Shown piece after piece: positions 31,881 to 36,221 of a stretch of DNA of 64,000 nt. A program made the position numbers and the translations under genes. Source of the DNA: Patescibacteria group bacterium (GTDB lineage Bacteria > Patescibacteriota > UBA1384 > 2-12-FULL-50-11); contig BOKZ01000001.1 of NCBI GenBank assembly GCA_016861245.1, forward strand, positions 280,962 to 344,961, read 5' to 3'. The notes under the pieces were generated by a model that did not search any database, was not told the origin of the DNA, and worked only from the letters and a program-made list of their open reading frames with translations. Each line of letters begins with the position of its first letter. Position 1 is the first letter of the stretch.

Positions 31881-34547
31881 TTACCTTGCGAGCTCTCTTC
31901 GCAAGGCATCAATTGCTTCTGGGGGGTAGTAGTCTCGTTTCTGATTAACTTTGTTATGGTACGTCTTGGGATAGTACCCTAGGCGCACCAATGTGTCGGG
32001 TATGAATGTGCCTCCCTTCATCTTGTGTAGCGAGGTTGCAATCTCACCAACGGTTAACCATCCACTTGGCGCATGGGTGACGACCTCGACTTGAGCCTTT
32101 AGCTCCGCGACGACTATTAATGGGAAGTGAGGCGAGATTTCGCCCGCCTTATTCCTGCGAGGTTGTGCCCAGTTGTTGTATGCTTTTATCCTCCTTGTGG
32201 TCCAACTCACTGTTTGTCCGAGAGCCAGTGCTACTTGCCTGATTGTCAGCCAATTTTCATCAGCTAACGGCGCTTCGTTGGCCCATTGCTGAGCTTTCTG
32301 AAGAGCTTCGGGCGGGTAATGGGTCGCAGCCTTACCGGTAGCGGCCCATCGGATCTCGCTAGCTACTCCCTGTTCAGCGAGGTAGGTTTGTAAGGCATGG
32401 TTGCCTAGGCTTAGCTGCTTGGCAATCTGTCGCGAAGTGAGCCAGTCACCCGCTTCCTTATACGCTTGTTGAATTTCCGTCAGCTTTTGTATTGCTTCAG
32501 CCGGAAAGAACTCAAGTATTTGCTGGTTTGCACGATCTCGGGCCATCTCGCCTTCAATCCCCAGCTCTGCAAGGCGTTCCGTAACCCACCCGAGGCTTTT
32601 AGACAGAGCTGTGGCAAGTTGGGTACGATTCATCCAACCCACTTTTGCCTCTGGTGTTGACTCAAGCTCTTTCCTGAGAATTGCCACACAGTCTGGAGGA
32701 TAGTGCATTGTTAACATGCCCTGATCCGTTCTGCGTAGCTCCCCTTGAATTTGAGCTTTAGTCAACCACCGGATAGCCCAATGAAAGTCCTGACCAACCG
32801 CTTCCGAGATCCTGTTCACCGTAATCCACTCGCCCGCCGGCTTCTCCTTTGCAGCCTGTTCAGACGCTTTTTTAAGTGTGGTTGGCGGATAGTGGATCAT
32901 TGCTCTACCGGAGCCATCTAGTCTAGTTTGTGACTTGAATTTCCCTTTCTCGAGGAAATTCTTTGCCCACGCACTAGACCTTTGAACGTGCTTCGCAACA
33001 TCCGCCGCAGTTACCCAGTCGCCCGATGGGGGTGCTTTTTGGGCGATTTGACGGAGTTCTTCTAGGCATTCAGGCGGAAAGTGGAGTGCTGGCCTTCCTC
33101 TCATGCTGCGCCTTACTTCTCCTCGGCCTTCATTAAGCCGGTTCATAACCCAGACTTCCGTCTTTCTGATTCGCTCACTTATTTGATGAGCAGTCAGCCA
33201 ACCATCGGCCGGATAGCACTCTGGTTGTTGAAGGAGGTCAACGATTGGTACTACGTGCGCGCCGCGCGTGTATACCTGAGGGATATTTGTCCCCACAGAG
33301 CCACTCGGCCCAACGTAAAGTACACCGCCATCGAGCTCTTTTATCTCACTGCGCCTGAAGAACTGAGCGAAGTTCATACTGTAGCCGTAGCCTTCAATCA
33401 GGTAGACGAAGTCAACAACTAGGCAGTAAGCTTTGCCACGACACCGCCTTGCCCCGCGACCCATTACTTGGGTATAACGGAGGCTCGAGCTAGTCGGCGA
33501 AGCCCAGACAACACACTCAGTGGCGGGGGCGTCGAAGCCTTCGCCAATAACTTGAGGTGAAATAAGGACCTGCAACGAGTCGGGGTGGTCTGAAGGAAGT
33601 TTATAGCGAGCGATGCTCCCGTTGGTGACGTAAGCACCCTCAAGCATGCGCGATGCGGACTGGTTGACTGCTAAGCCGACCTTAAAGCCCATTCGCTCTA
33701 AGTGCTTGTAGAGGACGCACGCTTCTTCCAGGACACGGTTAACGACAATGATCGTTTTCATCCCGCTGGGGAGGAAACGGGTGCCCACTTCGTGCGCGAT
33801 GCTGGCGAAAAGATCTGGGTGGTGACGGAGCTCGCGATAGAGCTTTTTACCAACAATCTCGTTACCAGACATTACGTCTCTCGGTAGAATGATCTCCGTA
33901 TCGATGCATAGTCCCATCAAGGGAGAGAGCCATCGCTTTTCGATACATTCCGGGAGAGTAGAGGTTAGGTCGTCAATTACCCTGAAGCCATAGTGCTCCG
34001 GCGAACGAAACGTCCCACTCGCTCGATAGGCGGTGGCGGTTAAGCCAACGACCTTCTCGGGCTGTAGCCAGCGCAAGAGGCTGAGCCTGAGTCTTGTTCC
34101 GATATTGTGAACCTCGTCAACGATGGCGAGGTCAACTTTCGGAACAACTCCGTGGTTTTTTCTTAGCGCATGAAGTGATTGCCATGTTGCGACAATGACT
34201 GGACCTCGAGTGTCCGGGAGGATACTGAAGCGAGTTTCGCCTGTTTCTTCGAAAACGAGGGAGCGCAGTGCTTCCTGATTCTGTTCGATCAGAATGTTCT
34301 TCGTTCCAACGATAAGCATGGCGACGCCTGGCTGGTTGTTGGGGTGAAGCAAACCGTCGATGACGCGCCCCTTCCCGTAGCCAGTAGGTTTTATGATCAG
34401 TGGGTACGGTTCCCCGCACCCGTGCTCTTGCCAGTAGGCCTGCACGGCTCTGACATCATTGAGCTGTGACGAGTTGAGCTCTTCGAGCCCTTCGGTTGAC
34501 AGTATCCCGTCAACGGCAATGTTGCCAGTAACTCCGTGAATTTTCAT
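31881..34547 (-). CDS. SF2 (DEAH/ResIII-type) helicase fused to seven tandem excisionase/MerR-type HTH_17-like repeats.
   Basis: Motif I KPTGYGKGR, motif II DEVH, motif III TAT, motif VI QVMGRGARR. The C-terminal 450 aa form about seven repeats of roughly 55-60 aa, with the core W(L/V)T..(Q/E)IA..L...............HYPPE.L..L. Confidence 0.7.
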   Translation of the reverse strand: MKIHGVTGNIAVDGILSTEGLEELNSSQLNDVRAVQAYWQEHGCGEPYPLIIKPTGYGKGRVIDGLLHPNNQPGVAMLIVGTKNILIEQNQEALRSLVFEETGETRFSILPDTRGPVIVATWQSLHALRKNHGVVPKVDLAIVDEVHNIGTRLRLSLLRWLQPEKVVGLTATAYRASGTFRSPEHYGFRVIDDLTSTLPECIEKRWLSPLMGLCIDTEIILPRDVMSGNEIVGKKLYRELRHHPDLFASIAHEVGTRFLPSGMKTIIVVNRVLEEACVLYKHLERMGFKVGLAVNQSASRMLEGAYVTNGSIARYKLPSDHPDSLQVLISPQVIGEGFDAPATECVVWASPTSSSLRYTQVMGRGARRCRGKAYCLVVDFVYLIEGYGYSMNFAQFFRRSEIKELDGGVLYVGPSGSVGTNIPQVYTRGAHVVPIVDLLQQPECYPADGWLTAHQISERIRKTEVWVMNRLNEGRGEVRRSMRGRPALHFPPECLEELRQIAQKAPPSGDWVTAADVAKHVQRSSAWAKNFLEKGKFKSQTRLDGSGRAMIHYPPTTLKKASEQAAKEKPAGEWITVNRISEAVGQDFHWAIRWLTKAQIQGELRRTDQGMLTMHYPPDCVAILRKELESTPEAKVGWMNRTQLATALSKSLGWVTERLAELGIEGEMARDRANQQILEFFPAEAIQKLTEIQQAYKEAGDWLTSRQIAKQLSLGNHALQTYLAEQGVASEIRWAATGKAATHYPPEALQKAQQWANEAPLADENWLTIRQVALALGQTVSWTTRRIKAYNNWAQPRRNKAGEISPHFPLIVVAELKAQVEVVTHAPSGWLTVGEIATSLHKMKGGTFIPDTLVRLGYYPKTYHNKVNQKRDYYPPEAIDALRRELAR

Positions 34548-34667
34548 AATTTTTCTCTGAATGTTAATGATGCTTTCACTGCAGGCGCAGTAAACGCTGT
34601 TATTTTAATAAAACTAACCTAAAAATTCAATCGTTTGGGGTGGATTTTTTGGGTAAGCTACAGTAGA

Positions 34668-34688
34668 ATGTGCAAGCAATATTCTTGC
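34668..34688. promoter_or_regulatory. Perfect inverted repeat TGCAAG-N7-CTTGCA in the divergent helicase/sigma intergenic region (candidate operator).
   Basis: Seen directly: tgcaagcaatattcttgcaag, centred between the two divergent start codons. Confidence 0.4.
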
Positions 34689-34704
34689 AAGGAACCTTAC
34701 AATT

Positions 34705-36165
34705 ATGGAACCAGTAGATACAACTCCTGTAGTGGTGCTTGACATCGTCCCTTTGGAGCAAGCTCGGGTGTGGGAGGCCTACTGGGCTAAACCTTCCGAT
34801 TACCAGCTTCGCAACCAGCTCGCCGAGATGAATACCGGCCTCATCGGCTGGACGCTCAATCGCTTTCTGCCAAAAGGTCTTCCCCAGGAATTGGAGGAAG
34901 AGATGAAGCAGGAGGCGTACCTTGGCCTCATCAAGGCCGTCGAAATGTTTGACCCAACAAAGGGTTTTAGGTTCGGCACGTACGCGCCATATTGGATTCG
35001 ACAAGGAGCCGATAGGTTCCTCAAGAACACCAAGAACCCGATTCGGATTCCGGTGCACGTCGGAGAAGTCAGCGGGCACATCTGGAAGGCTGAAAAGTCT
35101 TTCTTCCGTCAAGAAGGCAGGATGCCAACCGACGAAGAACTTGCTACTTTTCTCGGCTTTCCTATTGAAGCAATCACAGAGATAAGGAAGCTCGTCACCC
35201 CAGTTGGTGTAGTTTCTCTCAATCAACGTGCAGGAGGAGGCAGTAACAGTTCAGAACTTGGTGAACTTTTCGCAGACCCAACCGCAGTTAATCCTTTTGA
35301 AGAAGTTGCGCGCTTTGAGGTGCCGGAAGGGGTGAATCTCGAAAAGCTTAGAGAGGCGTTTGAACGCCTCCAAGAGCGTTCACGGGAGATGCTTATCCTC
35401 TCCGCTCGCGATCATACGCTTGAAGAGATTGGGAAGCGCTACAGTATTACGCGTGAACGAGTTCGTCAGGTAATCAAGCGAGGGATTGAAGACATTCGGA
35501 AGGTTTTGGGTATAGACCCGGAGCTACCGATCAGGTCAATTCGCCTCGCTGATCATATTGACGATTCCGCTACGATCGTAGTGCATGGTGTGACACTCAA
35601 CAACTTCGTCCAAAGGATAAAACAAGTCGATGAGGAGGTCAGAAGGTACGGCCGAGCTAAGCTTCGTTTACCCGCATCTGTGCGGACCGTTACTAGAAGA
35701 CAAAAACCTTCCATTACCGGCCAAGGACGGTCGAGGGTAGGAGTTAGTAAAGGACAAAGGCATCAAACGCCAAAGGAAAGGAAGTCGATTGTCGTCCGCG
35801 TCATCTCGACCAAATCACTGCCCCCGGCGTTTACTACTCTTCGTAGGGAAGCTGAACATAGTGTGCCTACACCCCCAGCTAGAGTGCTAGTTACTGAAGA
35901 AGAGTTCGAGGTAGCTTCGGCCGCCTGGAGGCGGTTGAGCTACGGAAAGTGGGGGAACCTAGACTTTCTCCTCGTTGCCGAGGAAGCCAAGCTTCCTCTT
36001 GCGAAAGTCCATTTGATTAGCTGTGCTCTAATCGCCAAGGGTGTTATCCAGCAGGATCGCCCTGGAATGTATCAGCAGGGCTGGCCCAACCTTGCGGTGA
36101 AGCGTAAGGGAGAAATTCAGCTCGAGATCGATCTTGAGCTTAATCAATCGCTGGTAACAGTGTAA
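34705..36165 (+). CDS. Alternative sigma-70 family factor with a ~200-aa basic C-terminal extension.
   Basis: Region 2 FRFGTYAPYWIRQGADRFLKNTKNPIRIPVHV and region 4 LEEIGKRYSITRERVRQVIKRGIEDIRK. It then continues for about 200 Arg/Lys-rich residues. Terminator at 36181-36207. Confidence 0.75.
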   Translation: MEPVDTTPVVVLDIVPLEQARVWEAYWAKPSDYQLRNQLAEMNTGLIGWTLNRFLPKGLPQELEEEMKQEAYLGLIKAVEMFDPTKGFRFGTYAPYWIRQGADRFLKNTKNPIRIPVHVGEVSGHIWKAEKSFFRQEGRMPTDEELATFLGFPIEAITEIRKLVTPVGVVSLNQRAGGGSNSSELGELFADPTAVNPFEEVARFEVPEGVNLEKLREAFERLQERSREMLILSARDHTLEEIGKRYSITRERVRQVIKRGIEDIRKVLGIDPELPIRSIRLADHIDDSATIVVHGVTLNNFVQRIKQVDEEVRRYGRAKLRLPASVRTVTRRQKPSITGQGRSRVGVSKGQRHQTPKERKSIVVRVISTKSLPPAFTTLRREAEHSVPTPPARVLVTEEEFEVASAAWRRLSYGKWGNLDFLLVAEEAKLPLAKVHLISCALIAKGVIQQDRPGMYQQGWPNLAVKRKGEIQLEIDLELNQSLVTV

Positions 36166-36221
36166 GCCACACAGCGTGTCCGCCCGGCGAAAGCCGGGCT
36201 TTTCTTGACCCTAAAAATGTT

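Follow-up and report, generated by a model that had tools for sequence, protein, structure and literature searches.

A divergently transcribed helicase and sigma factor in a tRNA-adjacent variable slot of a Saccharibacteria genome: a candidate anti-phage module

The stretch of DNA considered here ("the window") comprises 64,000 nucleotides of contig BOKZ01000001.1 from a member of the Saccharibacteria (TM7) within the Patescibacteria, whose genome (G000) is represented by 687 kb in two contigs and is 94% complete. Saccharibacteria are ultra-small epibionts with genomes of about 0.7 Mb; to our knowledge phage defence has barely been studied in them and their immune repertoire is little known. 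Near the middle of the window a superfamily 2 (SF2) helicase with a tandem array of winged helix-turn-helix (wHTH) domains and a sigma factor with a long C-terminal extension are transcribed away from each other, next to an intron-containing tRNA gene. An earlier examination of the letters alone (the sequence-only reading) had described this divergent pair, and its layout is borne out. GC content, described there as slightly raised, is 0.52-0.53 over 32-35 kb and about 0.47 in the surroundings. The cassette has the following parts (window coordinates; a dot marks features without strand):

31752-36223, dot: strain-variable insertion slot holding the cassette, with a left boundary at about 31752 and the tRNA 3' end on the right, delimited by comparison with the congener G002 and by a Logan contig
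31881-34547, minus: SF2 helicase, 888 aa, predicted RadD-like core followed by seven tandem wHTH domains (Pfam, PHROGs, NCBIfam, AlphaFold/Foldseek)
33230-34547, minus: helicase core, residues 1-440, ResIII/RadD-like
31881-33209, minus: array of seven predicted wHTH DNA-binding domains, residues ~447-888, each ending in an (H/F)(Y/F)PP wing motif, hypervariable (repeats, AlphaFold, VIA)
34548-34704, dot: divergent intergenic control region common to both genes, ~95% identical to the copy in locus L003
34630-34602, minus: promoter-like site facing the helicase, recognised by sequence
34671-34689, dot: perfect palindrome TGCAAG-CAATATT-CTTGCA, 16 bp 5' of the sigma ATG
34705-36165, plus: sigma-70-family sigma factor, 486 aa (Pfam Sigma70 regions 2, 3 and 4; no region 1.1)
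34807-35502, plus: sigma regions 2.1-4.2, residues ~35-266 (Pfam and comparison with RpoD of the same genome)
35503-36165, plus: C-terminal extension of sigma, residues 268-486, a basic linker (268-380) and a conserved domain (381-486)
36184-36210, plus: intrinsic terminator of the sigma gene, GCCCGGC-GAAA-GCCGGGC followed by TTTT, strong by sequence, facing and abutting the tRNA 3' end

By homology and predicted structure, the larger protein is a RadD-like SF2 translocase or helicase. Pfam places ResIII above cutoff at residues 44-173, with weak matches to DEAD and Helicase_C, and PHROGs returns phrog_16 "DNA helicase" (E=6e-30). An AlphaFold model of the full protein with 17 homologs (predicted local distance difference test, pLDDT, 80) retrieves the RadD structures 7r7j, 8h5y and 6jde first in Foldseek (~22% identity), followed by HsdR of type I restriction, Hef and XPB; for the core the best matches are 7r7j and 8h5y (E 1e-14). 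RadD is also the best NCBIfam model, but heli_RadD_YejH, a full-length equivalog model, scores 54.5 bits against a cutoff of 720, and the resemblance to the RadD family is one of fold only. RadD (YejH) of E. coli shares the core fold and motifs at about 22% identity, but it is a core DNA-repair gene with neither a tandem wHTH array nor a partner sigma factor, whereas the present helicase resides in a mobile cassette and departs from it in motif I. The sequence-only reading credited the protein with a complete DEAH/ResIII motif set. This holds for motifs II (DEVH), III (LTATAYR) and VI (YTQVxGRGxR, here QVMGRGAR), which are invariant among the 17 homologs, but not for motif I: residues 53-60 carry TGYGKG, the family form is PTG(F/Y)GKG, and the Walker Ser/Thr is replaced by Gly in 16 of the 17 homologs. 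Judging from this substitution, ATP hydrolysis may be altered, and the ATPase activity of the helicase is uncertain because motif I lacks the Walker Thr.

Starting at residue ~447, the core is followed by seven tandem units of ~62-64 aa, each of which contains a W(L/V/I)T and an (H/F)(Y/F)PP motif. In an AlphaFold model of residues 440-888 (16 homologs, pLDDT 89.7) every unit is folded as helix 1, short strand, helix 2, turn, helix 3 and a beta-hairpin wing, with HYPP at the end of the wing. The array as a whole had no single close counterpart in Foldseek. Single units aligned with DNA-bound wHTH proteins in VIA-align, most closely with the centromere DNA-binding domain of pSK1 Par (Z 8.2), followed by RacA (7.8) and SoxR (7.0), and further with CueR, MtaN, BmrR and the excisionase Xis of mycobacteriophage Pukovnik (Z 5.9). 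The structure prediction proposed with the sequence-only reading, which saw about seven excisionase- or MerR-type repeats, thus returns canonical wHTH units, although at the level of Pfam HTH_17 stays below cutoff (E=0.014; DUF771 E=1e-4). MerR-family proteins, RacA, ParB/Par and phage Xis share the topology of each unit, but each of them has one wHTH, whereas here seven stand in tandem on a helicase.

Relatives keep 78-93% identity in the helicase core but only 25-30% (about 28%) in the wHTH array, which has 4-7 repeats; the G000 and L003 proteins, for example, differ in their arrays although their cores are 93% identical. Such a conserved motor with a swappable DNA-binding array resembles the pattern of specificity modules. 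Because the units match DNA-bound wHTH proteins in structure and because the array varies as specificity modules of defence systems do, it probably sets the DNA sequences bound by the helicase.

The same observations bear on what we regard as the main rival to a defence function, namely that the pair serves the replication or maintenance of a mobile element such as a satellite or the remnant of an integrative plasmid. The protein would then act as initiator or as replicative helicase, with its array binding repeats at the element's origin that resemble iterons or centromeres, and sigma would drive element-specific transcription. The closest match of single units to a centromere-binding domain and the match to a phage excisionase suit this explanation, and the combination of a variable DNA-binding part with a conserved helicase is also in keeping with plasmid incompatibility groups. 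Direct repeats or iterons for such an array to bind were not found in or near the cassette, however, which offers only a single, unique and lineage-specific palindrome, and we consider the explanation unlikely.

The second gene encodes a sigma factor distinct from the housekeeping RpoD of the genome, which lies at 12647-13768 of the window. Region 4.2 keeps the housekeeping -35 contacts (RERVRQ); region 2.4 reads IRQGADR as opposed to IRQAITR in RpoD, and the one specificity position that differs hints at a different -10 preference. The long Arg/Lys-rich tail of the sequence-only reading is only partly so. Of the extension of ~220 aa, residues 268-380 are indeed basic (isoelectric point 11.7), but the C-terminal ~100 aa (381-486) are near-neutral and conserved, with the motifs EFAVAEAAWxRLSYGKW and SCALIAKGVIQQDRPGMYQQGWPHL. 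Neither Pfam nor a search of the ESM Atlas with the tail gave a usable match.

The palindrome noticed earlier between the two genes (TGCAAG-N7-CTTGCA) is present in perfect form as TGCAAGCAATATTCTTGCA; if up to one mismatch is allowed, a shuffled window is expected to contain 0.15 such sites. It occurs once in the 687-kb genome and is confined to the lineage of G000 and L003, while other copies of the module carry a TTGCAAGGA element beside the Shine-Dalgarno sequence. We rejected its interpretation as an RNA switch in the 5' untranslated region: the sigma leaders of seven copies are not unusually stable (z -0.2 to -2.8, inconsistent), their folding revealed no conserved hairpin occluding the Shine-Dalgarno sequence, and the restriction of the palindrome to one lineage likewise speaks against it.

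The helicase has many homologs, mostly in Patescibacteria; the tailed sigma has few that are full-length (P0123-P0128). The two genes stand head to head in all eight tailed-sigma loci examined, i.e., G000, its congener G001, L001 (a Patescibacteria metagenome-assembled genome from enhanced biological phosphorus removal, EBPR), L003/L004, L035, L038, L039 and L040, and every tailed-sigma homolog found (P0122-P0128 and that of L003) has the helicase as its divergent neighbour. Across these loci the alternative sigma is found only next to this helicase, and the failure to co-occur elsewhere, which the sequence-only reading had named as grounds for refutation, is not observed. The reverse dependence is looser: in L036 the divergent partner of the helicase is an HTH_38 regulator instead of sigma, and in L002, L037 and G007 the helicase has neither. 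Because the HTH_38 regulator takes the place of sigma in L036, we interpret sigma as the regulator in a regulator-effector pair, an arrangement that is classic for defence operons. An RNase III gene (with a double-stranded RNA-binding domain) recurs near the sigma-helicase module in the unrelated contigs L035 and L039.

In other genomes the helicase or the whole module lies in defence islands. Its neighbours in L003 are Dsr1 (PADLOC E=3e-48) and a control protein (C-protein) of the restriction-modification type. Serine recombinases accompany it in L001, L036 and L037, together with a type II (ParB-like) methyltransferase in L001 and with ParB in L037. L036 further has a CBASS (cyclic oligonucleotide-based anti-phage signalling system) DncV-like cyclase/nucleotidyltransferase and a complete type I restriction-modification system made up of HsdS, HsdM and HsdR. 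The PADLOC check proposed earlier accordingly had a divided outcome: the helicase and sigma themselves are not recognised as known defence proteins, but neighbours in other genomes, such as Dsr1, are. The defence-type setting proposed for the pair gains from these neighbours, including the combination of CBASS and type I restriction-modification in L036.

Comparison with congeneric strains shows that the module is gained and lost at variable slots adjacent to tRNA genes. The congener G002, whose flanks are ~95% identical in nucleotide sequence, lacks the cassette; between window position 31751 and the tRNA 3' end it carries another segment of 1.06 kb with two small genes (an SRPBCC and a VOC protein). 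The contents of the slot stop exactly at the CCA end of the tRNA in both genomes. In G001 the cassette, whose sigma is 75% identical, directly adjoins tRNA-Gln(TTG) at its 3' end; this locus is empty in G000. In a Logan assembly of activated-sludge DNA one contig spans exactly window positions 31705-36251 and adjacent contigs break at both boundaries, as is expected of a site occupied in some cells of a population and empty in others. These variable contents support both the foreign origin of the pair and the role of the tRNA 3' end as an integration hotspot, as supposed from the letters. The same reading called the module self-contained, which in the sense of mobility it is not: the G000 cassette has no integrase or recombinase, and no attL-like repeat of the tRNA 3' end is present at its left boundary, i.e., it lacks the own integrase and flanking att sites of an integrative element.

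Mobility of this kind bears differently on the alternatives. For a role in replicating or maintaining a mobile element, strain-variable presence and the serine recombinases beside several copies (L001, L036, L037) are in favour, but the G000 cassette consists of just two genes between host genes and contains no primase, no signature of a replication origin and, again, no integrase. Another alternative is a host module for DNA repair or stress, in which a RadD-like repair helicase would be turned on by its dedicated sigma upon DNA damage; the RadD-like core agrees with this, and an alternative sigma could sense stress. Absence from congeneric strains and movement between tRNA slots are atypical of core repair genes, however, and a hypervariable array suits diverse targets and not a repair substrate, which makes this alternative quite improbable. 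A third possibility is a selfish or counter-defence element, whose sigma would hijack RNA polymerase for expression of the cassette and whose helicase would shield the element, or phages of the host, from host systems (anti-restriction). Mobility, the setting at a tRNA hotspot and the obligate linkage of sigma to the helicase would all be in line with it, but the full module was found in no phage genome; phage relatives of sigma cover generic sigma regions only, and phage records hold only generic relatives of the helicase core (~25% identity over ~40% of the query), on which grounds we also rejected the helicase as a phage protein. Of the explanations weighed here we give this one very little credence.

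We interpret the pair as a mobile two-gene module with a regulatory and an effector part, most likely an anti-phage defence system that has not been described before, a reading to which we assign a probability of about 0.4. The module would act against phages or plasmids. We favour this because the two genes are linked head to head in all tailed-sigma loci, because Dsr1, CBASS, restriction-modification, methyltransferase and recombinase genes are neighbours elsewhere, and because the module is mobile, as seen in G002, G001 and the contig breaks of a natural population. A conserved motor with a hypervariable array, reminiscent of HsdR and HsdS in type I restriction-modification, leads to the same reading, as do the closest core structures (RadD and HsdR), the weak PADLOC matches to restriction helicases and the precedent of a sigma-70-family protein in an anti-phage system (MzaA). 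It is further favoured because the module is represented in metatranscriptome contigs of natural communities; these contigs cover both genes, i.e., both are represented in RNA libraries, in which DNA can be present as well. Taken together, the module sits in defence islands of other genomes and in a strain-variable slot in this one.

Several observations weigh against a defence function. The neighbours of the cassette in G000 are core genes, with no other defence genes among them, and the link to defence through co-location in other genomes is a case of guilt by association. Models of the PADLOC/DefenseFinder type miss both proteins, with MzaA reaching 118 bits of the 800 required and mREase_IV a weak match. 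Neither a nuclease nor any other obvious effector domain is part of the module, motif I leaves the ATPase activity of its motor in doubt, and there is no integrase or att site of its own that would account for its movement.

Comparison with known systems indicates where the module would stand if it is a defence system. HsdR (e.g., of EcoR124I) has a similar SF2 ResIII motor (Foldseek 4be7/2w00) and likewise combines a conserved motor with variable DNA specificity, but it lacks wHTH arrays and receives its specificity from a separate HsdS, whereas the G000 cassette has neither a nuclease domain nor a methyltransferase partner. PADLOC matches of the helicase to REase_I and REase_MTase_I are weak (E 0.007-0.02), and with no HsdM or HsdS in the G000 cassette the pair does not constitute a type I restriction-modification system. 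The MZA anti-phage system, reportedly described by Gao et al. in 2020, has a sigma-70-family protein as a component (MzaA, NCBIfam NF041931). MzaA possesses an N-terminal part of ~470 aa that is missing from the present sigma, and we rejected an identification as MzaA since nothing but the sigma domain is matched; PADLOC detected no further Mza component among ten window neighbours or on the helicase. In CapW-, BrxR- and WYL-regulated defence systems a divergent regulator gene is similarly paired with an effector in defence islands, but these systems use a repressor in the place held here by an alternative sigma factor. Except for MZA, we know of no precedent for an alternative sigma as the regulator of a defence system, and a description of the module was not found in the literature on MzaB-E, on defence by sigma and helicase, or on sigma factors and helicases of Patescibacteria.

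Under the defence reading, sigma would most likely be the dedicated regulator of the module, for instance by transcribing the helicase from the shared divergent region, and its conserved C-terminal domain might, more speculatively, connect it with the helicase or with a signal. The helicase would recognise invading DNA through its array and then act on that DNA, and/or sigma would redirect RNA polymerase in an abortive or transcriptional response. A more far-reaching version regards helicase and sigma as one immune unit, in which the array reads motifs of the invader and sigma is the output that redirects RNA polymerase, either as a switch-on of the response or as an abortive shutdown; we regard this version as rather doubtful. 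If true, it would be the first defence system with an alternative sigma factor as signal or effector, and this in Saccharibacteria, and it would represent a new wiring of bacterial immunity in which recognition of foreign DNA is linked to a switch of RNA polymerase specificity. The conserved motor with its swappable array of seven modules also provides a ready system for mapping the evolution of DNA specificity.

The tRNA gene that bounds the slot is itself split, with the following features:

36222-36813, minus: tRNA gene, most likely tRNA-Asn(GUU), with a 517-nt group I intron in the anticodon loop (intron-aware ARAGORN)
36263-36779, minus: group I intron encoding an HNH homing endonuclease open reading frame (Rfam core 36270-36540)
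36739-36407, minus: open reading frame of the HNH homing endonuclease, 110 aa from the first Met (PHROG HNH E=7e-26)

The intron-containing tRNA supposed to adjoin the pair was thus recovered by intron-aware ARAGORN and Rfam, while default ARAGORN misses it. The splice site is ambiguous by 2 nt, and the readings as Asn and Thr differ only by that shift. We consider tRNA-Asn(GUU) most likely, because no other tRNA-Asn is present among the 46 tRNAs of the genome and because of the discriminator G73 and the anticodon loop CUGUUAA, which is canonical for Asn. The call of Thr(TGT) by ARAGORN is rejected, as three Thr tRNAs are already present in the genome and all of them have U73. The likely sole tRNA-Asn gene of this genome is accordingly interrupted by a homing group I intron; several family relatives carry related introns in this tRNA, and the congeners G001 and G002 lack them. 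A second intron-bearing tRNA of the genome is tRNA-Gly(GCC) with a 46-nt intron (ARAGORN; C1:185977-186113).

A separate integrative element of a more classic kind, at 45665-50109, abuts the 3' end of tRNA-Met (50110-50181, minus strand). It encodes a large serine recombinase of 566 aa, whose open reading frame overlaps with the 3' end of tRNA-Met; a partial att repeat lies at 45599-45658, and the element is missing from the congener G002. The same case thereby displays two insertion hotspots adjacent to tRNA genes, besides the homing group I intron that splits the likely only tRNA-Asn gene. Inside the tRNA-Met element, Rfam reports a LOOT RNA above the gathering threshold (65 bits) at 47202-47322 on the plus strand. 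ARAGORN further assigns the anticodon TAT to a tRNA-Ile at 41572-41645 (minus strand), which is unusual in bacteria, where the Ile2 anticodon is normally CAT and AUA is read via lysidine.

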